Virus record (IMG/VR): IMGVR_UViG_2703718788_000009
DNA: 13,879 bases
Direction: 5' to 3' (one strand)
Source: a virus
Lineage: Duplodnaviria; Heunggongvirae; Uroviricota; Caudoviricetes
In this document: positions 122 through 13,879 of the stretch, piece by piece
Layout: every line of letters begins with the position of its first letter
Position numbering within the stretch: the first letter of the stretch is position 1
Notes under the pieces: generated by a model
Told to the model about the DNA's origin: nothing
The model's database searches: none
The model's input: only the letters and a program-made list of their open reading frames with translations
Made by a program: the position numbers and the translations under genes

Positions 122-307
122 ATGAATACCTACGAAAAGATTTATCAAAAATTAAAAAGTGATAACAATGCTCCCGTCATCAAGGGCGGGGCTTCTTCCT
201 CTGGTGACCTCTCAATCGAAGAGCTTGCGGAGAAATATAATATTGATAAAGAGGCCCTGAAAAGGGCTATTTCATTATCAAAATCTTTAAGACAGGGCGA
301 GGTATAA
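122..307 (+). CDS. hypothetical 61-aa protein immediately upstream of the tape measure gene
   Basis: ORF with 'aaagg' 8 nt upstream of the ATG; its TAA stop is 1 nt before the ATG at 309, suggesting translational coupling. No recognisable motif. Confidence 0.5.
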   Translation: MNTYEKIYQKLKSDNNAPVIKGGASSSGDLSIEELAEKYNIDKEALKRAISLSKSLRQGEV

Positions 308-308
308 A

Positions 309-2438
309 ATGGCAATGAAGGAAGTCGCCAGACTAACAAACGTTATTTACTGGGATTCTGATAAATCCTCCTGGCGAAAAGAAGTTAAACGGCTTGAGGA
401 TTATAAAAAATCCTGGAAGAAAGCCACCGACGATATTGCTAAAGCTGATTTTAAGTCTAATCAGGCTGTGCTCAGAACACAAAGAACACGCGCTAAGGTG
501 GAAGAGCAGATCGCCAGAGCACAGAAGAAACAACGTGCTCAGGCTGTCAGCCGTCTGACCGGAGGCAATAATCCGGAGCTCTCCTCTATGCGCAAGTTCT
601 ATCAGCAGCAAGCCAGAGAAGCCGCCAGACAACAAAAACTGTTAGATCGTAGTGTTGGAGATGTTCAGCACAGAAAAGCACGTGTAGGGGCCAACAGTGC
701 ACGAATCAGCAGCATGTTTGATGGCTCTCTGGTTGCTCAGTTCCAATCCAGAATTCAGAGAGTTAATGCTGATTATGCTAAAGGGGCTATCAACCTGCAG
801 ACCTATAATCAGAAAATGGCCCGACTCAGAGCTGAAATGAAGATGGCATCTAGAGATGCCACCACCTTTCAAGGCAAGCTAGATAAACTGGCAGCAGGTG
901 CGAGCAAGGTGCATAACAATATCGGCAAGCTTAACAGTGCTTTAGGCAAGATAGCCATTGGCCTGACCGCTGCGGGATGGGGTATTCAGAGAGCTGTCAG
1001 CAGTGCTATGAGCGCTCAATCTGACCATAACTCAGCCTATTATGGTTTGCTTGCTCAGAACAAGGATGATAAAGCCAAGACTGACCAACAGATGGCTTTT
1101 ATCGACAGAATCTCTAACGATTATGGGATGGATCAGCGTGAGGCTGAAGGCGGCTTTATGCGCTTTGCTGCAGCCACACCGAACGTAAAAGAGGGTGATA
1201 AACAGGCTCTCTTTGAGGCTATGGCTATTAAAGGTCGCTCAGTGGGTGCTACTGCGGACCAACAGAACAGGGCTATCGTTGCACTAGGGCAGATCTATAG
1301 CAAGGGCGGTCGAGTGTATGCGGAAGAGCTTAAGGGCCAACTTTCTGAAGCCCTGGCAGGCTCTCAGGTAGATTTCACCCGTGCGGCTATCGATGCCGGA
1401 ATCATCAAGAAAGAGGAAGAATTTAATAAAGCCCTTGAAGATGGCAAGATCACCATGGACAAGCTTCTTCCCTCTCTGGTGAAAATTTGGGGTGCTGCAA
1501 AAGAAACTGACGCTTTTGCTAAATCCATGCAGCAGCCAGAGGTGGCACTGCAGAGAATGAGCAACCAGTTTTTTAAACTAAAGCAATCCTTTATGGGTGT
1601 TGTTGATCCAACTGATAACGTTATTACCCTTTCTGAATCCCTGATCTACATCTTCGAAGACTTATCATCAATTTTCAGCGGCTCAGGTGAAGATGCCAAA
1701 TCACTGGGGGTTATGCTGGGTGAGGCAATGGATACAGTTTACACCCGTGCAGTTTGGGCTATTTGGTGGATTAAGAAGATCGCTAAAGAAATCGGTGAGA
1801 TGTTCAATCTGACCGCACAGGATGCAGGAAGTTGGATAGGCACAATTGTTACCGCTATCATGGGCCTGAAGGTTGCTGGAAGCGTGGCAGGCATGGTGGG
1901 CGGCCTTATCTCTATGCTGTGGAAGCTTGGATCAGCGATCAAGGCTTTATTAGTTGGTGGCGGTGTTGGTGATATCAGCACTGGGGGCACACCAGGTAAG
2001 GGCAAACCAGGTAAAGGCGGTTTAATCGGGAAAGTAGGCAGACTGGGAAGGTTTGCAGGTCCGGCTGCAGTTATTGCTACCGGATTCGATATTGCTAATG
2101 GTCTGGATGCATACTGGCAGAATCCTGATAATCAGCGACAGGAAGGAGTTAAACACCCGGAATGGCTAACCAGCATAGTTAATGGTGCTTCTAGCTTCCT
2201 CGGCCTTGATTATCGTCTCGATGCAGGACGCTACATTACCAGACCAACACCGACGGGTGGAATGGCTATTCAGAATGGTGGCTATCAACCAGTTCAGGTA
2301 AATGTAGTTCCACAAGGTGAGATTTCCGGCAAATGGGAGATAACCATTGATGAGGGTGGAATTGCCAGGGTGATCCAGAAGGAAGTCAGCGATCAGTTGG
2401 ATTGGAAAGCCACACAGGAATCTAATCAGCTTTTCTAA
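309..2438 (+). CDS. phage tail tape measure protein (lambda gpH-like)
   Basis: 709-aa ORF with SD 'gaggt'. Charged, Ala/Gln/Lys-rich N-terminal half, two hydrophobic helices (WIGTIVTAIMGLKVAGSVAGMVGGLISMLW), then a Gly-rich segment (GGGVGDISTGGTPGKGKPGKGG). The segment EEFNKALEDGKIT resembles lambda gpH 'EELNKALKDGKIL', recalled from memory and not verified. Confidence 0.75.
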   Translation: MAMKEVARLTNVIYWDSDKSSWRKEVKRLEDYKKSWKKATDDIAKADFKSNQAVLRTQRTRAKVEEQIARAQKKQRAQAVSRLTGGNNPELSSMRKFYQQQAREAARQQKLLDRSVGDVQHRKARVGANSARISSMFDGSLVAQFQSRIQRVNADYAKGAINLQTYNQKMARLRAEMKMASRDATTFQGKLDKLAAGASKVHNNIGKLNSALGKIAIGLTAAGWGIQRAVSSAMSAQSDHNSAYYGLLAQNKDDKAKTDQQMAFIDRISNDYGMDQREAEGGFMRFAAATPNVKEGDKQALFEAMAIKGRSVGATADQQNRAIVALGQIYSKGGRVYAEELKGQLSEALAGSQVDFTRAAIDAGIIKKEEEFNKALEDGKITMDKLLPSLVKIWGAAKETDAFAKSMQQPEVALQRMSNQFFKLKQSFMGVVDPTDNVITLSESLIYIFEDLSSIFSGSGEDAKSLGVMLGEAMDTVYTRAVWAIWWIKKIAKEIGEMFNLTAQDAGSWIGTIVTAIMGLKVAGSVAGMVGGLISMLWKLGSAIKALLVGGGVGDISTGGTPGKGKPGKGGLIGKVGRLGRFAGPAAVIATGFDIANGLDAYWQNPDNQRQEGVKHPEWLTSIVNGASSFLGLDYRLDAGRYITRPTPTGGMAIQNGGYQPVQVNVVPQGEISGKWEITIDEGGIARVIQKEVSDQLDWKATQESNQLF

Positions 2439-2448
2439 TATTGTGATC

Positions 2449-2469
2449 TAAATCAATAAGTTAGCCTAA
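2449..2469. repeat. copy 1 of 20-bp repeat 'aaatcaataagttagcYtaa'
   Basis: Matches 8341..8360 at 19 of 20 positions; both copies lie downstream of the stop of a plus-strand gene. Confidence 0.7.
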
Positions 2470-2485
2470 CCGGATAAACTCCAGG

Positions 2486-2521
2486 CAAGAAAAAAGCCCC
2501 TAAGTGTTAACAAAGGGGCTC
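2486..2521. terminator. intrinsic terminator-like hairpin, strong on the minus strand, weaker on the plus strand
   Basis: Perfect 7-bp stem agcccct (2495..2501) / aggggct (2514..2520) with a 12-nt loop. The minus strand reads a U5 run after the stem; the plus strand is followed by a pyrimidine-rich 'cttctccggtatcctttt'. Confidence 0.5.
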
Positions 2522-2550
2522 TTCTCCGGTATCCTTTTGATGCGGGGCAA

Positions 2551-2598
2551 AACCTGCTAACAAAAATCAACCTCTCGCGAGACTAATGTTAGCAGGTT
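2551..2598. other. perfect 12-bp inverted repeat (aacctgctaaca / tgttagcaggtt) around a 24-nt loop that carries the 'caacctctcgc' motif
   Basis: Direct reverse-complement match within the ORF-free region between the convergent operons. Confidence 0.6.
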
Positions 2599-2939
2599 GC
2601 CGGAAGGTAAGTCAACTCCGGCCTATAAACCTTAAAGCGACTATAAAATTGCCCCGCCAATTGTGATGATCCGACCTTTGAGGCGGGTCCGGTGCCCAGG
2701 GGGTGCAGTGATGCACAAACCAGGCAACGATAAACAGGCTAACAGTGATAGCGGCGCTCAATCAGCGCACTAAATCCTAACCAGTCCGGGAAAGAGGCTG
2801 GCTCTATCGACCGCTCATGCACGGGACAATGCATACCTGATAAAGGATTCTCACAAGGGACCAATCGCGAGAAAAGAAGTGGAAAGGGGCTGATTTGTGG
2901 TGTATCACTACGGCCTCAAAAGAACACTATTGTCTTTTT

Positions 2940-3392
2940 TCAGCCTCTCCCAACATTTGACCAGTATTTGATTGCACCGATCAAATCATCATAGTGGCGC
3001 ATTGCATCATTGAAGCCTTTATAGCTTGCCCATTGTGGTGAAACTTTGTTATTGCTGAATTGCCCACTAATCAGGATAGTCTCCAAAATGTCGGCGTATC
3101 GCTTGCCAATTCGCTTTCTGACGGCCTCAGAGCTCCCACCCTTTACGATTGCATTAATCAGGGCTTTTGTGTGTCTCAGGCTCTCATAGAGCATTGCAGC
3201 GTGGGCAGATTCCATAAAGGAGCGCTTAGGCAGATCACCCCACCCCTCAGAATGGATAGCCGCCAGTGTGGCGTAATTCAGGCCGCTATAGTGTTTCCCG
3301 TCATCCCAGCCAACCGCTACACCTTCCATCTGTGAGAGCTCTTTATGCAGCTTATCCATCATGCGCTTGTCTATGGTGCAACGGACTTTCAT
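2940..3392 (-). CDS. hypothetical protein, possibly virion morphogenesis or head-tail joining
   Basis: 150-aa ORF whose ATG overlaps the upstream gene's stop in an ATGA arrangement (translational coupling). It is the last gene of the minus-strand structural operon. The functional guess rests on context only. Confidence 0.5.
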   Translation of the reverse strand: MKVRCTIDKRMMDKLHKELSQMEGVAVGWDDGKHYSGLNYATLAAIHSEGWGDLPKRSFMESAHAAMLYESLRHTKALINAIVKGGSSEAVRKRIGKRYADILETILISGQFSNNKVSPQWASYKGFNDAMRHYDDLIGAIKYWSNVGRG

Positions 3393-4168
3393 TTTGTAGC
3401 ATCCTTGGCAAACTTGGCCTGCCTTTGCTGTTTCCAGGCGCTATCAGCTGCGTCATAGTTGCCGCCGTTTTCCTCTAACAACGTGTTAAAATCTTTAGTC
3501 TTAGCCGATGGGGTGTTGGTTGAGTTCCCTACGTTGCTATTCTTCTCAGCACTGTTAACAGCACCCTTTTGCTGTGTTTTGTTCACCTTCTTGCTGTTAG
3601 TGAAGACTCCGGCATTTTCGACCATCTTCACCTTGAAGGTGCGGAATTCTTCAAAGGTGCAATCAATAGTGATGCAGTCACCAGAGGAAGAGCTACGCTT
3701 AACTTCACATTTCGTCATGATGAAGTTCTCAAGGAGTCCGGCATCTTCACTTACCAGGCTAACAAGCTGGCGCTTGTCTCTCATTTCCATAAGTGCCTGA
3801 ACAGCGGCGGCAGGGCGCATAGATTCACGGGGATTATCTGGATCAGTGTTCCGGTCAATGTAGTTCTCTTTCCGGATGATATGAGGAGAAGAGGTAACAA
3901 TACCCGTAAAGCTGACAGATTTATCTTTAATGACGGCATGGTCTGACATGGTGGTGCCATCCTCGACCGCATAGCTCGATTTCTCAACAGGGAACGAATA
4001 GCTGACATCAGAGATAGAGTCAAAGAAGATAGCCACGTTATCGGTATAGTTGAAGCCATCCATTATATTTTTGTTTTGTGAATATCCCCCACACATAACA
4101 GTGAATGCAGGAGATCTCGATTCAGCTTGTTTTGCAGCTGTCAGAGCATCACTAGCCATATTAAACAT
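3389..4168 (-). CDS. hypothetical protein, possibly a virion structural component
   Basis: 259-aa ORF. A GGAGG sits 1 nt before the first ATG and about 10 nt before the second ATG (4159), so the true start is probably 4159 (MASDALT...). Ser/Thr/Asn-rich, with a Lys/Asn-rich low-complexity C-terminus. Confidence 0.55.
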   Translation of the reverse strand: MFNMASDALTAAKQAESRSPAFTVMCGGYSQNKNIMDGFNYTDNVAIFFDSISDVSYSFPVEKSSYAVEDGTTMSDHAVIKDKSVSFTGIVTSSPHIIRKENYIDRNTDPDNPRESMRPAAAVQALMEMRDKRQLVSLVSEDAGLLENFIMTKCEVKRSSSSGDCITIDCTFEEFRTFKVKMVENAGVFTNSKKVNKTQQKGAVNSAEKNSNVGNSTNTPSAKTKDFNTLLEENGGNYDAADSAWKQQRQAKFAKDATK

Positions 4169-4264: not shown

Positions 4265-4525
4265 TTATTTTGCAAAACGATTATGGGCATTCAGGGCTTT
4301 TTTGCGGTCCTGGGCTTGTTTGCGTGCAATAAAATGTTCGAAAGTCTCGGCCCAGGTGCATTTATTATATTCACGGTATTTATGCATAGCCTGGCGGCTA
4401 ACGTCATAGCAGGCGGAAAATGTGGAGATACGCAGGAATTCCGGCAGATCCTCGTCATCGATATGGATAATATCAAAAGGCACGTCGTCACGGTCGCCGT
4501 ATAAAACAATTTTCATAAAAGACAC
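4265..4525 (-). CDS. hypothetical small acidic protein (about 83 aa from the ATG at 4516)
   Basis: The track start at 4525 is GTG; the ATG at 4516 has SD 'gaggtg' 6 nt upstream. First gene downstream of repeat copy B. Confidence 0.5.
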   Translation of the reverse strand: MSFMKIVLYGDRDDVPFDIIHIDDEDLPEFLRISTFSACYDVSRQAMHKYREYNKCTWAETFEHFIARKQAQDRKKALNAHNRFAK

Positions 4526-4548: not shown

Positions 4549-4595
4549 ATGAGTCCTTCCAGGACCTTAGCTAAAGCTAAGCCCTTTGGGTCTGT
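4549..4595. repeat. 47-bp repeat, copy B
   Basis: See copy A (57..103). Lies between the capsid-gene terminator and the next minus-strand gene. Confidence 0.85.
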
Positions 4596-4602
4596 GGATA
4601 AT

Positions 4603-4663
4603 AAAAAAGGGAAGAGGGAAAGACCTATCCCCGATCTCTCACCTCTTCCCTTTGCTTTTATTT
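4603..4663. terminator. bidirectional rho-independent terminator downstream of the capsid gene
   Basis: 9-bp stem gggaagagg (4609..4617) / cctcttccc (4642..4650) with a 24-nt loop; flanked by A6 (4603..4608, a U6 run on the minus strand) and 'tttgcttttattt' (4651..4663). Confidence 0.65.
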
Positions 4664-4679: not shown

Positions 4680-5729
4680 TTATTTAGCCTTGGCTTTTGC
4701 CAGAGCAGCGGCGGCGGCGTTTTTAACACTCACTTTAACCACAACTTCGGGCATCATGTTCATGAAAGCATAAGAGGATTCAACGAAGATTTCTCGTTTG
4801 GCTCTGGACTCTTCCATATACATGAAAGCTTCACGTGCAGCGCCGTTTGCAAGCTTCAGGTTGCGAGCGCAAGGGCCGAAAAATTGAGTATAAACGCCCA
4901 CCATATCGCCTAACGCATGCGGCTGGAACTGTGGGACCAGATAAGCAGTATTCTCTGGCAGACTATCCATTTGCACCACACGCAGAGCTAAGCCTGGAAT
5001 GCGGAAAGTCGGGAAGCCCGGCAGAATATCCTCAGGGAACATCAGACCTTTATCAGTGATATTCTGATTGCCGAACAACAGCACTTTTCGCAACAGTTCA
5101 TCAGTCTGAATTGCAGCAAAGAGCTCAGCACGGCAGAACAGGGTGAAACCACGCAGAGCGCGAACGACACCACGCTGTTTAACCTTGCTCAGCGCAACCA
5201 GGTCCTGCAGCTGTTTAAGGATATCTTTAGCTAAATCCACTTCTGAGGTGGTTTGCTGTGCGCCCAGCAGTTCGCACACATTCAGTTCTTTACCCTTGGT
5301 GAGGATAATTTTGTTCTCAAAGAGAGCAAGCTGGCGTGCTTCTTCATGGGTCTGGCGTAAGCCTTCACCAAGCTGAATAACACGACGAGCGGTTACAGAC
5401 TCTAAATTCTCTTCGGAATCTTTGCCCGGAACACGGATACCCTGCCAGTCAGAAGGATAAATAGCACTTGATGCGGCAGTGAATGCCATATCACCCGTGC
5501 CCGTTTCACGCTCATCTGCGGTAATGGTAGCCATCTGTTCACCGTAGCGCGGATACTGACCGAAAGCGGTTTGTTTCACCTGGCGAACTTTGTCATATTC
5601 AAATTTAAAGGTATTGCACAGAGCAGTAGTGTTGAAGATATCCATTGCTGAAATAATCTGGTTATCCAGCGGGATGTCTTTAATCAAGCCACACAGATCG
5701 CGGACTTCGAATTCTTTTTTCATCTCCAA
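4680..5729 (-). CDS. major capsid protein (lambda gpE-like)
   Basis: The likely start is the ATG at 5723 with AAGGAGG 6 nt upstream; the track start at 5729 is TTG. The segment SLPENTAYLV and the C-terminal 'REIFVESSYAFMNMMPEVVVKVSV' resemble lambda gpE 'FLPDNTMVLG' and 'REFTMIQSAPLMLLADPDEFVSV', recalled from memory. About 347 aa, preceded by a small beta-rich protein. Confidence 0.7.
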   Translation of the reverse strand: MEMKKEFEVRDLCGLIKDIPLDNQIISAMDIFNTTALCNTFKFEYDKVRQVKQTAFGQYPRYGEQMATITADERETGTGDMAFTAASSAIYPSDWQGIRVPGKDSEENLESVTARRVIQLGEGLRQTHEEARQLALFENKIILTKGKELNVCELLGAQQTTSEVDLAKDILKQLQDLVALSKVKQRGVVRALRGFTLFCRAELFAAIQTDELLRKVLLFGNQNITDKGLMFPEDILPGFPTFRIPGLALRVVQMDSLPENTAYLVPQFQPHALGDMVGVYTQFFGPCARNLKLANGAAREAFMYMEESRAKREIFVESSYAFMNMMPEVVVKVSVKNAAAAALAKAKAK

Positions 5730-5734
5730 CCTCC

Positions 5735-6070
5735 TTATTGTGCAACACGCAAATCGCCATTGCTGGCAGCGATAACAGCGGCTAAGCCTTCTTTATCCAC
5801 GTAGGCCGGATTGATATAACAGCCCTTGTTGGCAACAACGATAAAAGCATCACCAACCTCAGCACGTTCTACAACCAGCAGCGGAGTTTTACCGGTGTGC
5901 GTTGCTTTAACGAAGGTCTCAACCTCGCCAGCCTCAGTCACCACAACAACAGTGCCAGCCGGAATCTCAGCTTTAACTTTGTTTTTAATTTCAACGTCGC
6001 GAATACTAAATTGCTCATCTGCGGCGTATGAAATGATGTGTCCGCGTGTGCGGATAGTCATATCTCTCAT
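5735..6070 (-). CDS. putative head decoration or auxiliary capsid protein (by position)
   Basis: 111-aa ORF whose TAA stop overlaps the capsid gene's SD. Val/Thr/Gly-rich and beta-like. The assignment is positional (lambda D-E order), not from sequence identity. Confidence 0.45.
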   Translation of the reverse strand: MRDMTIRTRGHIISYAADEQFSIRDVEIKNKVKAEIPAGTVVVVTEAGEVETFVKATHTGKTPLLVVERAEVGDAFIVVANKGCYINPAYVDKEGLAAVIAASNGDLRVAQ

Positions 6071-6225: not shown

Positions 6226-6548
6226 TCCACATGGGGAAACCGACAACAGTCGGATGATAGTTCACAGTATGGGTTACGGTTACTAGAGAGCACTATCACG
6301 AAAGGCACTCCCCCGAATCAGTTCAGGCTGCGGTCACATCAGCGGGGAAATACCTTTCGGGATAGCTACCCACACAGAAAACCCGCAAAAGAAAACTGTG
6401 TGGATAACTAGCCCAATAGGAGAATTAATCGACCACTCAACGATGATCAGGGTAGTGTTATTTATAAGGCGGCACCGCTACCTGGTCGCCTTTACTTTGG
6501 AGGAAAATACGGCAAATCACTTTCACCATTGATTTACGGTATATGTAT

Positions 6549-6577
6549 ATTATATCAGTATTCTCTCAAATTGTCAA
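6549..6577 (-). promoter_or_regulatory. perfect-consensus sigma70 promoter (TTGACA-N17-TATAAT) on the minus strand, directed at the capsid operon
   Basis: The reverse complement of 6549..6577 reads TTGACA atttgagagaatactga TATAAT, with an AT-rich stretch upstream. Predicted start near 6540, about 470 nt before the ATG at 6070. Confidence 0.6.
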
Positions 6578-6841
6578 CACCCTGATTATATAAATTCTAA
6601 TAATTAGCGTAGTAACGGTATTTTCAGACTGCTATCAATCCCATCAATACGTCACCCCCACCCTTTAGATGCATACATCCGACCTACTTTGTAGGCTTGG
6701 CGTACTGCCAAGGTCGAAGCTATGCGACTCATATCTATCACCACTTTATAAAGCTTGATAGATATCTTTTGATCAATATCAATGTTTTCCGGGGATTTAC
6801 CCGGCTATAGTTCGAATCAAGGAAGGGGAGCATTGATAGAG

Positions 6842-6890
6842 ACACCCAAAGGGGTGACTGAAAGTCACCTGGCATAGCCAGTGAAAGCAC
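6842..6890. repeat. 50-bp repeat, copy A (palindromes GGTGAC-N5-GTCACC and CTGGC-N3-GCCAG)
   Basis: About 42 of 49 positions match 12072..12120; lies about 45 bp upstream of the ATG at 6934. Confidence 0.8.
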
Positions 6891-6933
6891 CCAACCGAAC
6901 AAACAAATCAACTTCTCGCAAAAGGTGATAGTT

Positions 6934-7056
6934 ATGGGTATCAAGAACAGTGCCAGCGCATGGCAAAAGGCCAGGTTTCATCACCCACACATTGTTAAGG
7001 CAATTGAGGTGGTTGGAGTGTTAGCCCTGATGTTAGCTCTGTGTGTGGAGGTGTGA
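6934..7056 (+). CDS. small hydrophobic peptide (41 aa), first ORF of a plus-strand module
   Basis: ATG at 6934 with SD 'aaggtga'; MGIKNSASAWQKARFHHPHIVKAIEVVGVLALMLALCVEV, with a C-terminal transmembrane-like helix. A second 26-aa peptide (7058..7138) follows with SD GGAGG. Below the ORF-track threshold. Confidence 0.3.
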   Translation: MGIKNSASAWQKARFHHPHIVKAIEVVGVLALMLALCVEV

Positions 7057-7157
7057 GATGGGCAAAGGAGGCAAAGCATTTTTAATAGGTCTGGCAGTCT
7101 TAGATTTTGTATTAATCATCATTGAGCGGAGTTTATGAACAGCATTGAGAGGAGTTT

Positions 7158-7418
7158 ATGACGGGGGCTAAAGATATCAGGAGATTGAGGGAAGAGCTGA
7201 TAGCTGAAATTAAAGCTAAGGCAAAGCAAATGGAGATAGCCGCACAAATGGATGTAGCGGAACAGATGTACAAGATGGTTGAAGAGGGAACACCACGGCA
7301 GGTTATAGCAAAAACATTTGGTGTGGGGATCGCCACCGTGCACAGAAGGCTGAAAGCCTATGCCGACTACCACAATATCGAGAGAAAGGAGGATGGGAGA
7401 TTTAAGAAGAATAAATAG
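7158..7418 (+). CDS. small DNA-binding protein with a helix-turn-helix motif
   Basis: 86-aa ORF with SD 'gagagg'. The motif TPRQVIAKTFGVGIATVHRRLK looks like an HTH of the resolvase or IS3 OrfA type; the N-terminus looks coiled-coil. Confidence 0.6.
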   Translation: MTGAKDIRRLREELIAEIKAKAKQMEIAAQMDVAEQMYKMVEEGTPRQVIAKTFGVGIATVHRRLKAYADYHNIERKEDGRFKKNK

Positions 7419-7475: not shown

Positions 7476-8162
7476 ATGTTTAAAGGTCTTGTTGTTACGC
7501 TATTGGCTTGCATTGTATTTGGTCCATGGGTGTTAGTAATTGCTTTACCTATATTGCTGATCATGAGCTTAGGGAATGATATTAAAAAGCTGCAAAAGCT
7601 GCATGCACAATATAAGGAGAATCCCGGCGCGTTCATGGTAAGTCTGGTTATAGTCGCGGGGCTTATTGGATGGGTGTATTTCTCCCTCCCCACAGGAAAT
7701 ACAACTGCAAATGTAGAAGAGGCCGCAGTGGTAGAGGAAAAAGCCAACAAAGGATTCAGATTTATTGTTGGTGTGGATAGCCCAGTATATGGCCCTGAAG
7801 CTGTGGATCCTGCAATGGTGCATGCCTGGTTATGGAACAGAACGGAGAAAGGTAGCTGCAATCAACTAAAAGCGAGCGCCAACATAGAAGAGGAAGGAGA
7901 TACATTTTTCGCATGGTGTAAAGATATCAAAGGCAATGATAGGTGGTTTACCATTACCAATATTGTAGGTGTTTCCCGTTCACTAATGAATCACCCTGAG
8001 GCTAAGAATCCGCTAACAGGTGTCCGATTAAAAGATGGCCCAATATGGATCGATTTATACGGAACACAAATCACTGAGGGCGTGAACAGCGATATCCAGG
8101 ATAAGCTGAAAGACATAAATAATCAGTATGGTGCGATTGTTGAAACCTCTCCTATGAAATAA
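7476..8162 (+). CDS. membrane protein with two N-terminal transmembrane helices and a roughly 150-aa C-terminal domain, possibly superinfection exclusion
   Basis: 228-aa ORF with SD 'agagg'. Hydrophobic segments at about residues 5..30 and 53..70, separated by a Lys-rich loop. Function is a hypothesis. Confidence 0.6.
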   Translation: MFKGLVVTLLACIVFGPWVLVIALPILLIMSLGNDIKKLQKLHAQYKENPGAFMVSLVIVAGLIGWVYFSLPTGNTTANVEEAAVVEEKANKGFRFIVGVDSPVYGPEAVDPAMVHAWLWNRTEKGSCNQLKASANIEEEGDTFFAWCKDIKGNDRWFTITNIVGVSRSLMNHPEAKNPLTGVRLKDGPIWIDLYGTQITEGVNSDIQDKLKDINNQYGAIVETSPMK

Positions 8163-8220: not shown

Positions 8221-8280
8221 TATTTAATACCCATTTATCCCCTATTTAATGCCTATTTATTGATTTAATCCGTTTTATGC
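8221..8280. repeat. phased TATTTA(A/T) repeats at roughly 11-bp spacing; possibly bent DNA or an architectural-protein site
   Basis: tatttaatacc / atttatcccc / tatttaatgcc / tatttattgat / ttaatccg / ttttatgcc in succession. Confidence 0.4.
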
Positions 8281-8340
8281 CACAACCGCCCGGTTGACAG
8301 AGTAAGAGAGAGGGTGTAACCCTTTTTCGTAATACTAATA

Positions 8341-8360
8341 AAATCAATAAGTTAGCTTAA
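8341..8360. repeat. copy 2 of 20-bp repeat 'aaatcaataagttagcYtaa'
   Basis: See 2449..2469. Confidence 0.7.
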
Positions 8361-9368
8361 TAAGCCTTTTCTCTATTTTTGTCAAATTTAACATACCCTA
8401 AAAAACTGCAAAATCTGACTGCAAGATTATCTGCAGCTGGATTTCTTACACCTCAATTTGTGGTATCACCCTGACTAGTTTGTGCATAAAATGAACAGTT
8501 TTTAACATTTCCTATTCACCTGGTAACCACACAAAAAGCTAAAAACGAGGCACAGATAATCTTAGAGGCCTGTTTTCTTGTTATCACTATGGGAACGTCG
8601 TAGAAGTGATTTTGATGAAAGATGACCTACCCTATTACACCCCCATTTTTTGTTATCACAATTGCATCCTGTGCGGTATATGGCTGTGTGCTGAAAGCGG
8701 TCTTGGGTGTGGGTGTCAGAAATATCCATTAGCGGTATTAATACCCGTCAGATGTTCGTCTGAGGTGCCAGGCAGGCGCTCCCCCACCTCCCTTTTTTCT
8801 TCTAACAATTCTCAAATATCACACCACTGCCCACCACGTTGCTATTATGTTAATTCTTAAGCTTTGCTGTATGTTGTGCACATTATTTATTCAGGTGCGT
8901 GTACGTAAATTCTGGGCCTCCTTATCATGATTTTTAAATCAGATTTTGTAGTGCGCTTTATTAGTGTAGATAAGATCTATTATGTTAAATGCAATTTTCC
9001 CAACCCTTCAAATCAATGACTTACATGTAAGCATGCACTAACACCCCACACAGCACATTAGACGTGTAGATGTCTATATCCCACATTTTTGATTGTTTTG
9101 TAGTCATTCCCCTGATCATTTAACCAGTATAGTTTGCTATCTGCAGACCACAAAATCGGAATTTACATCTGATTAACATAATCTGTTAGCATGATCACCA
9201 TTACCCACACAACAATAACCCCATGCAAGCCTCTTTAGGCAATTTATCGGCGTGTTGGTGTGAACAGTCTTTCATGTTCTTTATGTATTCATGACTGCAA
9301 GGAATGTATTCATTGGCCTGTGTGGGGGAAGGATGGACTGCCCCAGGGGCCATACTTATGATGCCCGG

Positions 9369-9404
9369 TCAACATAAGTGTTGATAAAATCAAGGGGTGT
9401 TGAT
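9369..9404. promoter_or_regulatory. pair of adjacent inverted repeats (TCAACA-N4-TGTTGA and ATCAA-N6-TTGAT); candidate operator
   Basis: Both have perfect arms; they sit just upstream of the iteron cluster. Confidence 0.4.
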
Positions 9405-9426
9405 CTGCATATTTCCCACACATGAG

Positions 9427-9456
9427 AGGAAATCAGAGCAAAGAGAGAGGAGAGAG
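9427..9456. repeat. polypurine (GA-rich) tract
   Basis: A 30-nt run of almost only A and G on the plus strand. Confidence 0.5.
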
Positions 9457-9465
9457 GTTTGTTAG

Positions 9466-9520
9466 TCAAAATCAAGTCACATTAGAGTCAAATCAAGTCA
9501 AATCAGATGCAATCAATCCC
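9466..9520. repeat. cluster of 'aatcaagtca'-type direct repeats
   Basis: gtcaaaatcaagtca, gtcaaatcaagtca, aatcagatgca, aatcaatccc in tandem. Confidence 0.6.
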
Positions 9521-9521
9521 C

Positions 9522-9586
9522 CACCTGTTGGGATTTCCCACATGTTCAACCATACACAGGAGCTAACCTGTTGGGATTTCCTACAC
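9522..9586. repeat. two copies of 'acctgttgggatttccYaca', 45 bp apart
   Basis: 9522..9541 and 9567..9586 are near-identical. Confidence 0.7.
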
Positions 9587-9639
9587 CTCTTGCACATACC
9601 CCGGAAGATTTTTCCGGTGTGCCATCTTTGCAGGCTCCA

Positions 9640-9807
9640 ACCTGTGAAGAATTTTCACACCTGTAAATCCATACAGCACGGTAAAAACTACCGCACCACC
9701 TGTCAAAATATTTTACTACCCCACCAATAATACGGCCCATACCTGTAAAATATTTTTACTACTACCTGTCAAAATCTTTTACTACTACCTGTAAAAATAT
9801 TTGACAC
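9640..9807. repeat. iteron array with ACCTGT core (part of the candidate replication origin)
   Basis: ACCTGT occurs at 9640, 9659, 9698, 9741, 9764 and 9787, plus 9523 and 9566 in the preceding repeat. The last four sit in units of about 23 bp, 'acctgt(c)aaaatattttactac', three of them directly tandem. Confidence 0.7.
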
Positions 9808-9839
9808 TAATAGATAAAGTAACAGACCACACAATAGAT

Positions 9840-9865
9840 CCCCCCCTAACCCCCCCCCCAGGGGG
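9840..9865. repeat. homopolymer tracts C7-TAA-C10-A-G5, bracketed by GATC sites
   Basis: Read directly: gatcccccccctaacccccccccaggggg, with GATC at 9837..9840 and 9876..9879. Confidence 0.8.
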
Positions 9866-9902
9866 AATGGGGAGGGATCAGAGAGTGGGGAAGGTTTATC
9901 AA

Positions 9903-10027
9903 TATATCAAATTGATATACTTAGCTAGATGTATCAATTAATACACTTAAAGGTGAGCAATGCTTAGCTAGATGTATCAATCCGATACACTTAGAATATT
10001 CTAGATGTATCAATTAATACACTTAAA
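9903..10027. repeat. 17-bp perfect palindrome followed by three direct repeats of about 30 bp
   Basis: Palindrome tatatcaa-a-ttgatata at 9903..9919; repeats 'ctagatgtatcaat..atacactta' at 9920..9951, 9963..9994 and 9999..10027. Confidence 0.75.
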
Positions 10028-10906
10028 TCACGTAACTTATTGTATTTATTAAGAAAAGTCATCTACCTATATATACTACTGATTCGCCTCCGCTCATCAT
10101 TAGTATGGTGTAACTGATTCATGCTTCGCTTACGCTCACATTCATCTACTTACACCCCCTTATCTGAATTGAACATTCCCGTCCAATCCAGCTAAGAGAA
10201 TTGATTGAACATTACCTAACATCCGTTAGCTAACATTCTAATCAATTAACTACTTAAACACTTCCACACCTTCCGGTGGTGCCAAGTAACCTGGCATGGT
10301 GGGAAAAGATTCTGCCGTTTTAGGTAGAATTGATTTCCCACAAATAGTAAGTGTCGGCCCTTCAATGTCACTCTCCTATGAGGGGAGAGATGACGGGCCT
10401 CCTGTGTGGGTGAGTATCGGAGCAGTCTGTGAAGTATGAGCAGGCTGTGAGATACGCTACTGTATATCTGCGTAGAACAGCCTCCGCTGTTTACGCTCTT
10501 TGTGTGGTCCGGCGAATGCGTCAGCATGAGGCCCACATGTGGACCGCTGCCGAAAGCTTGCCAGCGCCGGAAGGAGGCAGCAAAGAGTCTCCCGCGCTCA
10601 TGTGTGGGCGTATACGTAAGATATACATTCATAAATCCAATCCTAGGCCCCTAAATGGCCTTCTGGCTGCATTAACCTGTGTGAGTAGTGCAATTGCATT
10701 ACCTGATGCTTAAATCGCGTTGTAGGGCCTCTCATAGAGAATTTAACTATCAAGATAAAAATTGCAGATCGGTCTATTGACAATCTTATTGCATAAATGC
10801 TATAAGTTATTCTGGTTTTGACACGGTAGGGGCCATTAATAATGCTTACCCCCTTTGCTGTGGACTTGCTTGCACCTATAGCACACCTAAATGATAATAA
10901 TTCTCA

Positions 10907-10970: not shown

Positions 10971-11120
10971 GTGGAAATTACTGATGCAATAGCGATCATC
11001 AACCTGGCTGTACTGTGGTGCGGTGTTGCCTACATAGCCGGAGTAACTGCAATAGACAATCTTGAAGAAAAAATGATAGATAAATACAAAAAGATTGTTG
11101 ACAATTTGACGAATGTTTGA
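10971..11120 (+). CDS. small membrane protein (49 aa, GTG start), possibly holin-like or toxin-like
   Basis: GGAGG 5 nt upstream of the GTG; VEITDAIAIINLAVLWCGVAYIAGVTAIDNLEEKMIDKYKKIVDNLTNV has one transmembrane-like helix and a charged C-terminal tail. Absent from the ORF track. Confidence 0.3.
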   Translation: MEITDAIAIINLAVLWCGVAYIAGVTAIDNLEEKMIDKYKKIVDNLTNV

Positions 11121-11126
11121 TAAAAT
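11098..11126 (+). promoter_or_regulatory. strong sigma70 promoter (TTGACA-N17-TAAAAT) for the leader and Rep operon
   Basis: -35 at 11098..11103, a 17-nt spacer, -10 at 11121..11126. Confidence 0.6.
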
Positions 11127-11176
11127 ATAAAGCATAGGGTAATTCTCAGCATGTGAATTTTCCTTAAACAGACTAG

Positions 11177-11495: not shown

Positions 11496-12410
11496 ATGAA
11501 TATTGAGTCTGTTTTTAATATAACTTTAAATGATGATCCTAGTATCCTTTTGCTGCCAATGCTCATAAATAAATCTGGACTATTAAAAAGAGGCGACGCA
11601 AGGGATATCTATATTTACATGTGGAATACTTACTATCTCCACGCTAAAAAAGAGGCCGCCAAGGTGTTCAGCAAGAAGACTAAAGGAAGAAGCCTCAGCC
11701 AGGATATGAAAAACTCCATCAGAAAAGAGTGTTTTGCTATTAAAGATAAAGATTCCTGTGTGGAGATCTCTTATAAGGATATAGAGGAAAGAATTGGAAT
11801 ACTGCGACCAAATGCAGTAAGGGCAATTAAAAAGCTGGAATCTGAAGGAATTATCACCTGCCTTAAAAAAGGCAATAAGCATAACCCTTATGCATCATGG
11901 CAAATTAATGTCGGAATCTTTGAAATGATGGAAAGAGTAGGGATTGAAAACCTCATTGGGTGGGATCTCTTAAAACCATATTGGAAGAAAGAACAGGAAG
12001 CAGCCGGAAGAGGGGAGGGGGCCAAAGCTCCACAGGAAGCTCCAAAACAAGCCGCACAGCAGCCTGAAGACACACCCGAAGGGGTGACCGTAGGTCACCT
12101 GGCTAAGCCAGCGAAAGAGTCCAAAGTGGTGCAATTCCCTTCTGTGAAAGATAAAGACGTTAGCGTAGAGCACAACTCTTATTCCGAAAGTGTGACAACG
12201 TCACCTGTTAAGGCAAACAAGAAGGAGGCATCTAAAGTGATAGATATTTCTTCTTTTATGGCAGATGAAGATGATACGCAAGATGTGTGGTATACACCTT
12301 CAGAAAATGATTATAGTGGTAGTGGTGGTTATGATCCTTATGGCTATGATGAGGATGAATACAACCCATTTGAAGATGAATATACAAATGATTCCGCTAT
12401 CCCTTATTAA
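11496..12410 (+). CDS. putative replication initiator (winged-helix, lambda-O/RepA-like N-terminal domain) with a long disordered acidic C-terminal tail
   Basis: 304-aa ORF with SD 'agagg'. The segment 'VEISYKDIEERIGILRPNAVRAIKKLESEGIITC' resembles the winged-helix DNA-binding domain of lambda O 'RITDSQLSEITKLPVKRCNEAKLELVRMNII', recalled from memory. The C-terminal 140 aa are low-complexity and end in ...EDEYTNDSAIPY. Confidence 0.55.
   Translation: MNIESVFNITLNDDPSILLLPMLINKSGLLKRGDARDIYIYMWNTYYLHAKKEAAKVFSKKTKGRSLSQDMKNSIRKECFAIKDKDSCVEISYKDIEERIGILRPNAVRAIKKLESEGIITCLKKGNKHNPYASWQINVGIFEMMERVGIENLIGWDLLKPYWKKEQEAAGRGEGAKAPQEAPKQAAQQPEDTPEGVTVGHLAKPAKESKVVQFPSVKDKDVSVEHNSYSESVTTSPVKANKKEASKVIDISSFMADEDDTQDVWYTPSENDYSGSGGYDPYGYDEDEYNPFEDEYTNDSAIPY
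12072..12120. repeat. 50-bp repeat, copy B, embedded in the Rep-like coding sequence
   Basis: Matches 6842..6890; encodes ...TPEGVTVGHLAKPAKE... in the disordered tail. Confidence 0.8.
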
Positions 12411-12498: not shown

Positions 12499-12987
12499 AT
12501 GTTCAAATCTGATCTTTCTGATTCCCAATTTGAAAAACTGGTAGCACTGCAGAAATATCTCCCCAGTGATGATCAACCAACACGACAGGCTAAACACTTA
12601 TTAGTCGAGGGCTTTACCCCTGAATTCGTGGCGGAATACACAGGCGTTAAACTTGAGAAAGTCCAAAAACTATATAATGAGTCCTGGAATCCACGGTGTC
12701 GAGTTCCCCTCAGTGTCTACAACGAAATAGACAGAGATAGAAATGTCTTCGAAGATCGCCGCCGCAAATCTCTTTTAATGTGGAATTGTGGGATGAATAT
12801 TGAAGAGATAGCAAAAGAATTAAAAGTAACCTGCTTTCATATCTGGGGCTTGTTGAGTGAAATCCTGCCACGTAAGGAGCTTAATCAACGTTTGCCTAAG
12901 CCCGGCAGTCGTGCTTATCGCGAATTTATATTCATCTACCGCCGCCATAGCAATAAAGTCCGGAAAGCAATGGCCCAGAAAGCCTAA
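12499..12987 (+). CDS. DNA-binding protein with two predicted helix-turn-helix motifs (regulator or small-terminase-like; unresolved)
   Basis: 162-aa ORF with SD 'ggag'. HTH-like segments FTPEFVAEYTGVKLEKVQKL and MNIEEIAKELKVTCFHIWGLL; basic C-terminus. Confidence 0.55.
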   Translation: MFKSDLSDSQFEKLVALQKYLPSDDQPTRQAKHLLVEGFTPEFVAEYTGVKLEKVQKLYNESWNPRCRVPLSVYNEIDRDRNVFEDRRRKSLLMWNCGMNIEEIAKELKVTCFHIWGLLSEILPRKELNQRLPKPGSRAYREFIFIYRRHSNKVRKAMAQKA

Positions 12988-13060
12988 GTTTTATCTCTTC
13001 GATTTATTTATTTTCGACTCACTTTAACCCCTTCCGGGGCTCTAATTTAAGGAATTCCAA

Positions 13061-13504
13061 ATGTCTCAAATCGCTAAATTACTATCCCAGGTTATCAAAG
13101 CTTTCGACGCTGAAGATTCAAAAGTTCGCCAGGATCTTTTAGATGGCAAGTTTACCAACACCCTGGCATTTACCCGTGACAAAGAGCACTTCTTAAAACA
13201 CAGACACCACGCTTTTGCTGAATGCAAGTCCGCTAATGGTGATGTTTTCTATGTCGATTTGGTGGTTATGGCATGTAGGCTGTGGATGATTCAGGACCTT
13301 ATGCGCCAACACGGTGATGATCCTCTTATCAGCATGTGGAACAGCGCCCAGGATGGCTTTGTGATTGCTGCCTTATCCAAATCAATGATTGAGGCAGAAG
13401 GGGCAAGCCTTCAGAACATGGCAGATCTCTTTGAAATAAGCGTAGGAATGATGCAGACCATGCTCCAAGCTGTCAAACCTCTCAAACTGGTTAATCTTGA
13501 TTAA
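13061..13504 (+). CDS. hypothetical protein (147 aa), probably alpha-helical
   Basis: ORF with SD 'aagga' 7 nt upstream; no recognisable motif. Confidence 0.5.
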   Translation: MSQIAKLLSQVIKAFDAEDSKVRQDLLDGKFTNTLAFTRDKEHFLKHRHHAFAECKSANGDVFYVDLVVMACRLWMIQDLMRQHGDDPLISMWNSAQDGFVIAALSKSMIEAEGASLQNMADLFEISVGMMQTMLQAVKPLKLVNLD

Positions 13505-13564
13505 GCTATTGATAAATAAGCACTCCCCATTTTTTGGGGGGTGCATCAATGAGAGGATATGCCT

Positions 13565-13879
13565 ATGAATATTGAAGAAATGATAGTTGAATTCGAAGAG
13601 GGTGATTTCCTGGAAGATGGGGAGTTTAAATACTCCCGTTTTAAACAGGCGTTATTTAGCAGCGATGATAAACCCCACGTTAGTGATCTTAATGACGATG
13701 ATTTATGTCGTTGGGTATGCACCCGCTTATATGAGGATGGAAAATATACAGGCCAAAACTTTCCAAATCTCTATTTCAAAGCACAAACATTTGAGGAAGG
13801 GCAAAGAGTGAAAAACCTGATCGATAAAATGCTTTCAGCCGGATATTTGCATGCTGAAAGCAAGCGCCATTATATTTTT
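13565..13879 (+). CDS. 5' part of the junction-spanning ORF (acidic protein; continues at 1..120 if circular)
   Basis: ATG at 13565 with SD 'gagagga' 7 nt upstream; open to the window end. The overlapping track ORF 13587..13811 is in another frame and looks spurious. Confidence 0.5.
   Translation, partial: MNIEEMIVEFEEGDFLEDGEFKYSRFKQALFSSDDKPHVSDLNDDDLCRWVCTRLYEDGKYTGQNFPNLYFKAQTFEEGQRVKNLIDKMLSAGYLHAESKRHYIF
13859..13879. other. 21-nt terminal redundancy identical to 1..21, marking a circular junction or assembly overlap
   Basis: 'agcaagcgccattatattttt' occurs at both ends of the window. Confidence 0.9.

Follow-up and report, generated by a model that had tools for sequence, protein, structure and literature searches.

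Why should an element of 13.9 kb with few recognisable virion genes carry the gene for a tail ruler, and carry it on the strand opposite to its capsid gene? This question was raised by a stretch of DNA of 13,879 nucleotides, filed as a virus of the Caudoviricetes (IMG/VR record IMGVR_UViG_2703718788_000009) and called the window below, always at its full length. The gene at positions 309-2438 is predicted to encode a tape measure protein (TMP). A preliminary description of the window had taken the element for a satellite that carries its own ruler and would thereby impose a distinct length on helper-derived tails. The protein, its neighbours and the whole element were compared with known phages, plasmids and satellites. 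On balance, the TMP is probably the tail-core ruler of a plasmid-borne satellite, whose helper would be an rV5-like (Vequintavirus/Vequintavirinae) lytic myophage.

The tape measure protein and its phage relatives

The product of the gene at 309-2438 scored above the cutoffs of Pfam PF20155 TMP_3 (E = 3.5e-13; 50.2 bits, cutoff 41) and TIGR02675 tape_meas_nterm (35.1 bits, cutoff 21.35), and it matched PHROG 5255, 'tail length tape measure protein', with an E value of 6e-131. The tape measure domain assumed in the preliminary description was thus found with hidden Markov models. Residues 104-683 also matched the TMP of known structure from Pectobacterium phage phiTE (9cuy_W, E = 4.6e-19; PDB entry 9cuy is linked to PMC11972413). 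The well-annotated Vequintavirus MaxTheCat (Bas57) served as the reference phage for protein comparison; when aligned with its TMP, the protein was collinear over residues 4-706 against 5-771, with 24% identity. Judged by these matches, the open reading frame (ORF) encodes a genuine tape measure protein. The gene had previously been placed in a lambdoid frame and its tail compared with that of lambda. This context was rejected, since every detectable phage relative belonged to the Vequintavirinae, which are myophages.

Only four proteins of the plasmid, namely the TMP, the major capsid protein (MCP), a Dit-like tail tube initiator and a phrog_222 protein, had counterparts in MaxTheCat (identities in Table 1), and the Vequintavirinae (rV5, MaxTheCat Bas57, phiTE) were the only phages with detectable homologues of them. 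These phages share with the plasmid an E. coli host and a G+C content of 44%, the value found both in the phage region of MaxTheCat and in the plasmid; that of E. coli is about 51%. They have genomes of 130-145 kb, a complete virion set and co-directional TMP and tube initiator genes, whereas the plasmid has four paralogues in two convergent operons.

The TMP has 709 aa in the plasmid, 778 aa in Vequintavirus and 811 aa in phiTE. It is 69 aa shorter than that of Vequintavirus, and the difference ranged from 62 to 80 aa across the core family of related plasmids described below. At a generic 0.15 nm per residue, the tails were estimated at 106 nm for the plasmid ruler and 117 nm for the Vequintavirus ruler, a difference of about 10 nm. 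When the estimate was calibrated on phiTE (tail of ~102 nm and TMP chain of 811 aa, giving ~0.126 nm per residue), the values were ~89 and 98 nm, a difference of ~9 nm.

Residues 1-150 and 651-709 of the TMP were nearly invariant across the plasmid family (~98% conserved), and the ratio of nonsynonymous to synonymous substitution rates (dN/dS) was ~0.2 for residues 1-450 and 0.03-0.12 for residues 651-709. Residues 451-650 (window 1659-2258) formed a hydrophobic, Gly-rich and exchangeable cassette that preserves its length, with seven types, each of 191-200 aa, among 119 family TMPs. The most distant types were 18-24% identical, with TMP flanks that were 83-100% identical. No DNA similarity was detectable in the cassette segment between plasmids that are otherwise 85-97% identical; together with the constant cassette length, this indicates that the sequence was exchanged and the length kept.

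Capsid and tail genes on the opposite strand

As had been described before, the TMP gene is transcribed towards a minus-strand operon that holds the capsid gene. It is also the last gene of a same-strand run that begins on the Rep side, a statement that holds because the contig is circular (21-nt terminal overlap). No further gene followed on the plus strand downstream of the TMP gene, and a terminator-like hairpin was found ~57 nt past the stop codon. The accompanying claim that the element lacks baseplate or distal tail genes was not borne out. Genes for the Dit-like protein and the phrog_222 protein lie on the minus strand, 500 bp from the TMP stop codon; going by these family matches, distal tail and baseplate functions are present, on the opposite strand.

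From its promoter, the minus-strand operon runs through the genes for a 111-aa protein, the capsid protein, an 86-aa protein, the Dit-like protein and the phrog_222 protein. The Dit-like protein matched the phiTE tube initiator (9cuy_K, E = 4.5e-34), and its RefSeq name is 'phage baseplate protein'. An AlphaFold2 model of the phrog_222 protein reached a pLDDT of 87.6; no informative fold or sequence match was obtained for it in the PDB, the complete phiTE virion included. Homologues of the MCP in the distant relative L010 and in locus L012 carried Pfam Phage_cap_E. The 111-aa protein was conserved in L010 (48%) and L012, and its position makes it a candidate head decoration protein; its single-sequence AlphaFold2 model (pLDDT 41) was unusable. 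No family match was obtained for orf86 with Pfam, PHROG or defence-system models. The dN/dS values were 0.11-0.16 for the MCP, ~0.01 for the phrog_222 protein and 0.4-0.5 for the Dit-like protein; purifying selection acts on the capsid and tail genes.

Recognisable capsid and tail genes on the plasmid numbered four, with the gene of the 111-aa protein as a putative fifth by position. No terminase, portal, protease, scaffold, sheath, tube, wedge, fibre or lysis gene was detected with Pfam, PHROGs or the comparison with MaxTheCat, and portal, protease and terminase also had no NCBIfam match. A 13.9-kb plasmid with few capsid and tail genes and with no detected terminase, portal, sheath, tube or lysis genes agrees with the satellite-like element of the preliminary description.

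A circular plasmid family of constant size and layout

An exact overlap of 21 nt between the two ends of the window revealed a circular contig of 13,858 bp, and the window represents a complete circular E. coli plasmid. The element shared 90-95% identity with small, non-mobilizable E. coli plasmids. Among 5426 complete E. coli genomes the element was present seven times (0.13%), always as a plasmid. The tail genes had no chromosomal homologue at the DNA level in these genomes, which argues against a resident prophage as helper, and this candidate was rejected.

Relatives of the TMP gave 409 matches in the protein database. The best 120 of these all came from E. coli or Shigella, with 67-100% identity; their contigs were almost all 13.2-14.3 kb long and their TMPs had 698-716 aa. 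Intact ORFs were found in more than 100 family variants. An exhaustive search of cluster representatives added five more distant full-length TMPs (31-38% identity). The contigs of two of the five measure 13,268 and 13,861 bp and share the layout of the window, the TMP gene facing genes for a capsid and a Dit protein on the other strand; on the contig of a third, which is 4.7 kb long, phrog_222 and Dit genes likewise converge on the TMP gene. Gene order and size were thus kept in relatives at 31-38% TMP identity, showing that the convergent layout and the genome size are conserved family traits. In a real myophage fragment (L013), the genes for the tail assembly chaperone (TAC), TMP, Dit and baseplate are all co-directional, which also marks the convergent layout of the plasmid as a family trait.

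No near-identical DNA was present in phage records, no family member was found among the GTDB species representatives, and no tRNA gene was found in the window. No literature on this plasmid family or on any rV5/Vequintavirus satellite was found in a search whose coverage left out most subscription journals. The family is large and, as far as the literature found goes, previously undescribed.

One plasmid record (L002; NZ_CP043822.1, 39,610 bp) was a head-to-tail trimer of a 13.2-kb unit, possibly a real multimer or an assembly artefact. One of its units was altered, with a TMP of 693 vs 718 aa and broken capsid and tail genes. The unit length of the family, 13.2-14.3 kb, is close to a tenth of the ~135-137 kb of a Vequintavirus genome; a head of helper size would be filled by a concatemer of ten plasmid copies, which is possibly a coincidence.

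A second family of small elements comprised L015 and L016 (E. coli contigs of ~20 kb), L007-L009 and L019. Its members carry, on one strand and in this order, genes for a Dit-like protein (287-299 aa), a TMP (746-773 aa) and a phrog_222-type protein (161-162 aa), together with an HNH gene and, in some copies, an IS605/TnpB insertion. No capsid gene was found in this family by tblastn with the plasmid capsid protein (L007, L008) or by PHROGs on 10 proteins of L015 other than the Dit-like protein, the TMP and the 161-aa protein.

A proposed satellite of rV5-like phages

Several lines of evidence led us to favour a plasmid-borne satellite. The TMP is genuine and collinear with that of Vequintavirus, and four helper paralogues and no others are present, a pattern that resembles PLE satellites compared with their helper ICP1. 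The element is circular, always a plasmid, and belongs to a large family of constant size and layout; its capsid and tail genes are under purifying selection and its G+C content equals that of the phage. Satellite TMPs and altered tails have precedent in PLE (PMC12987554) and in EPIPs (PMC12822802).

When such a helper infects the cell, the TMP, tube initiator and phrog_222 protein of the plasmid would replace the helper versions in the baseplate hub, and the tube and sheath of the helper would polymerise along the 709-aa plasmid ruler. The outcome would be a chimeric contractile tail ~9-10 nm (~two tube rings) shorter than that of the helper. The plasmid capsid protein would build a small shell sized for ~13.9 kb of DNA, and the helper would provide portal, terminase, sheath, tube, wedges, fibres and lysis. 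On the model of PLE, an own tail core probably interferes with TMP-dependent tail assembly of the helper, or escapes TMP-directed inhibitors so that the element keeps tails of its own; the cassette at residues 451-650 might be the trace of that arms race. A distinct tail length had been implied as the purpose of the gene, a view for which no support was obtained: in PLE, length is a by-product of the tail-core swap. The identity of the helper, incorporation into its tails, the change in tail length and the reason for the cassette variation are steps that we infer.

Several points weigh against such a satellite. No small terminase and no pac or cos site was recognised, and induction, packaging and transduction of the plasmid are themselves what we infer, by analogy. 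No member of the family was found among the IMG/VR viral contigs. The proposed helper is assigned by protein identities of 24-50%. Unlike in PLE, no TAC was identified, the two ORFs upstream of the TMP gene included. The phrog_222 protein had no counterpart among the phiTE virion chains and may not be part of the virion, and the 111-aa protein, a decoration candidate by position, had no hhalign link to the Vequintavirus decoration protein.

More tentatively, the 13-14 kb plasmids may constitute a widespread and undescribed class of E. coli/Shigella satellites, free plasmids that would live on strictly lytic Vequintavirus phages and provide the shell of the capsid together with the entire tail core (ruler, tube initiator and phrog_222 factor), with a TMP cassette that would diversify at constant length in an arms race over tail assembly. 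The ~20-kb family, which has the same tail trio and no recognisable capsid gene, would then be a sister class.

Alternative explanations

The plasmid could instead serve defence and never be packaged, its copies of the capsid protein, TMP, tube initiator and phrog_222 protein acting as poison subunits that abort Vequintavirus assembly and protect the population. The failure to recognise a packaging gene or site agrees with this explanation, as do the absence of the family from IMG/VR and the hypervariable TMP cassette, which is typical of an arms race; interference with assembly is, moreover, a known defence strategy (PMC11364771; Rta in PMC12987554). Poisoning would need neither five full-length structural genes under strong purifying selection nor a TMP held at 698-716 aa, and it leaves unexplained a replicon size of 13.2-14.3 kb across 31-100% TMP identity, which resembles a packaging limit. 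Defence and parasitism coexist in PLE, so that this explanation, which we consider unlikely, may be only half of the truth.

A satellite might also use its own TMP for entry past blocks directed at the TMP of the helper (superinfection exclusion, TMP-sensing immunity), with length being incidental. Its premise is that ejection begins with the TMP, which clears a path across the envelope. In its favour, variation is concentrated in the hydrophobic, Gly-rich segment 451-650, both ends and the overall length being kept, and references that PMC11364771 cites document, for HK97, both exclusion directed at the TMP and entry that depends on it. Satellite TMPs are shorter than those of the helper in both systems (62-80 aa here, 95 aa in PLE11), which suggests some common constraint; we consider an entry function with incidental length improbable.

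A cryptic plasmid with decaying remnants of a phage or phage-plasmid, in which the tail gene has no present function, would account for the incomplete virion gene set and for the rarity of the family (0.13% of complete genomes). ORFs that are intact in more than 100 variants, dN/dS values of 0.01-0.5, gene order and size retained down to 31% TMP identity and consensus promoters on both operons make this very improbable. With its own capsid protein and tail core, the element could also be a minimal particle producer of the GTA, tailocin or encapsulin kind that is self-sufficient and needs no helper. This is scarcely credible, since portal, terminase, tube, sheath, baseplate wedge, fibre and lysis genes were not found in 13.9 kb and, in the absence of tube and hub proteins, a TMP and a tube initiator serve no purpose.

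Other genes and non-coding regions

The plus-strand run that ends with the TMP gene begins at a promoter and continues through orf69, the Rep-like gene, two genes of unassigned function, orf139 and a 61-aa ORF (Table 1); the promoter and the gene order predict a single operon from Rep to TMP. The two genes of unassigned function, encoding 162 and 147 aa, had no significant match with Pfam, PHROG or defence-system models, and orf162 was conserved in L010 (39% identity). No Pfam match was obtained for orf139, which was not conserved in L010 or L012. For orf61, Pfam UPF0122 and GntR-type helix-turn-helix (HTH) models gave E values of 8e-4 to 8e-3, below the cutoffs, and RefSeq annotates its counterpart in L004 as an HTH protein. 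A TAC gene upstream of the TMP gene was rejected: the 139- and 61-aa ORFs had no Pfam or PHROG signal for one, and hhalign of orf139 against the Vequintavirus TAC gave a probability of 0.06%. In the Vequintavirus-type phage fragment L013, Phage_TAC_15 is located upstream of the TMP gene. Defence-system models gave nothing meaningful on the genes without assigned function.

Table 1. Predicted features of the window and identity of its proteins to those of phage MaxTheCat
Feature	Position	Strand	Evidence or remark	Identity to MaxTheCat
orf61	122..307	+	stop 307 abuts TMP ATG 309; weak HTH signal	
Tape measure protein (TMP)	309..2438	+	ATG start, 709 aa; Pfam, TIGR02675, PHROG and phiTE matches	24%, end to end (709 vs 778 aa)
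Convergent intergenic region	2439..2939	.	hairpin ~2495-2520 (terminator-like) and conserved block ~2640-2935	
phrog_222 protein ('tail completion or Neck1')	2940..3392	-	150 aa; PHROG E 1.1e-28	43%, full length (bas57_0011)
Dit-like tail tube initiator / baseplate hub protein	3389..4168	-	259 aa; Pfam Dit_like E 1.5e-25	50%, aa 8-219 of 259
orf86, small conserved protein	4265..4525	-	between capsid and tail genes; L010 homologue 34% identity	
Major capsid protein (MCP)	4680..5729	-	349 aa; phrog_29 E 3e-22	24%, full length
111-aa protein	5735..6070	-	directly upstream of capsid gene	
Promoter	6549..6577	-	perfect sigma-70-type, 12/12, extended -10; faces capsid/tail operon	
Iteron-like direct repeats	9695..10014	.	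4 x 23 nt and 3 x 22 nt	
Promoter	11098..11126	+	near-consensus, 11/12, extended -10; faces orf69, Rep and onward to TMP	
Rep-like winged-HTH protein	11496..12410	+	304 aa; PHROG 'replication initiation O-like' E 4e-5; weak MarR/CodY HTH	
Two conserved genes (162 and 147 aa)	12499..13504	+	between Rep and TMP; function not assigned	
orf139, 5' part	13559..13879	+	139 aa; crosses circular junction, ends at position 120	

The two promoters are the strongest promoter-like sites of the window and face the capsid/tail and Rep-to-TMP operons. Over 46 nt (6546-6591 and 11084-11129) they are inverted relatives of each other with 72% complementarity, a kinship that suggests common control of both operons.

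Within the convergent intergenic region, the block at 2640-2935 had 74% nucleotide identity over 305 nt with the distant relative L011 (2841-3138), where the flanking proteins are 35-49% identical; the block is more conserved than its flanking genes. Its fold z-scores were unremarkable. A possible micro-ORF of 20-22 codons (MHKPGNDKQAN...) with synonymous differences was seen within it. In L010, L011 and L012, the three distant relatives with the convergent layout, a gap of about 550 nt (547-664 nt) likewise follows the TMP gene before the opposite-strand gene.

The most conserved part of the plasmid family was window 8250-9500 (~1.25 kb; 92-97.5% identity), which has no ORF above 102 aa and whose substitutions were without three-base periodicity; it could be a cis-acting site for packaging or replication, or an untranslated RNA. 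Rfam gave no match at the gathering score in the window and only sub-threshold matches in the conserved non-coding regions. The conserved non-coding blocks had no similarity to phage genomes, and two IMG/VR matches to a 22-nt motif were rejected as chance.

The iteron-like repeats are a probable origin or partition site. Long, slippage-prone C and G homopolymer runs (CCCCCCCTAACCCCCCCCCCAGGGGG) lie at 9840-9870 between the two iteron sets, and this spot may be sensitive to assembly. Three segments (7476-8162, 9500-10500 and 11500-12250) were swapped for unrelated sequence in sister plasmids and correspond to a 228-aa membrane-like protein beside a resolvase-type HTH gene, the iteron region and the Rep gene. 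Rep and iterons vary in concert, the pattern that incompatibility switching would produce. The slot of the 228-aa protein, which had no PADLOC match, looks like a site for accessory cargo.

A 55-nt direct repeat with an internal hairpin occurred at 57-111 and 4551-4605 (89% identical). The first copy forms the 3' end of orf139 and the other lies between the capsid gene and orf86; the former looks like an insertion, since it is missing from the end of orf139 in L004 and L006. The heptamer CCCACAC occurred 11 times against 1.2 expected (none of 200 shuffles reached 11), with 8 of the 11 copies in long stretches without annotated gene (windows 6369-7327 and 8707-10608), and may be a protein-binding motif.

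Significance and comparison with known systems

If the plasmid is a satellite as proposed, tail-core replacement would be a general satellite strategy, and the plasmid would rank among the few satellites of virulent coliphages and offer a tractable E. coli model, with helpers available in the BASEL collection. Phages of the rV5 type are used in biocontrol and therapy, and the plasmids could blunt such phages or ride on them. With its constant length, the TMP cassette offers a natural test of which regions of a ruler protein may vary. Satellites with a ruler and hub protein of their own are a kind already published (Nature 2026, PMC12987554) and first shown in one Vibrio system; the plasmid differs from PLE in its free plasmid state, its own capsid protein, the phrog_222 protein and the lack of a detected TAC.

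Among the plasmid-like elements known in bacteria, phage-plasmids of the P1, N15 and SSU5 types are defined by a complete virion and lysis set, which the 13.9-kb plasmid does not have. Satellite P4, an 11.6-kb replicon able to persist in plasmid form, is packaged into small capsids that receive the tails of its helper P2. It encodes no capsid or tail structural protein, its Sid protein resizing the P2 capsids. The plasmid described here resembles P4 as a small, plasmid-capable replicon and differs from it in encoding capsid and tail proteins. The cf-PICIs, like the plasmid, have their own capsid shell and would share with it the use of helper tails, but they are integrated whereas the plasmid is free. 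Their head and packaging module is complete (terminase, portal, protease and connectors); on the plasmid, the gene for the capsid protein and a small gene next to it were all that was found of such a module, and no portal, protease or terminase was recognised.

EPIPs of Mycolicibacterium (PMC12822802), among which TMP-encoding members were reported in a 2025 preprint, are likewise small satellites with a TMP and a capsid protein, and their particles are small-headed with altered tail length. They differ in being actinobacterial, in having a siphophage prophage as helper, in their serine integrase and small terminase, and in their longer tails.

The PLE satellites of Vibrio cholerae provide the closest parallel to a tail-core swap. 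The TMP, TAC and baseplate hub protein that they encode share 20%, 20% and 41% identity with the counterparts in their helper, the lytic myophage ICP1, and the PLE versions replace the phage proteins in virions (PMC12987554). PLE11 tails are 10 nm shorter because the PLE11 TMP is 95 aa shorter than that of the helper, and Rta, a protein of PLE11, blocks the assembly of tails on the phage TMP; the same authors also mentioned putative tmp genes in further satellites (PMC12987554). PLE is an integrated island with an integrase and excises on infection, whereas the plasmid is a free circular replicon with Rep and iterons in which no integrase was found. PLE reuses the helper coat by means of a scaffold and encodes a TAC, whereas the plasmid has its own capsid protein and no TAC was found on it. 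The plasmid adds the phrog_222 protein, and no Rta-like inhibitor was identified on it. Both have their own diverged TMP and hub protein (20-41% in PLE; 24% and 50% in the plasmid, compared with the helper-type phage), and both have a shorter TMP (by 95 aa in PLE11 and 69 aa in the plasmid). As far as the genes of the plasmid tell, both would also share a strictly lytic myophage as helper and leave the tube, sheath and fibres to it.

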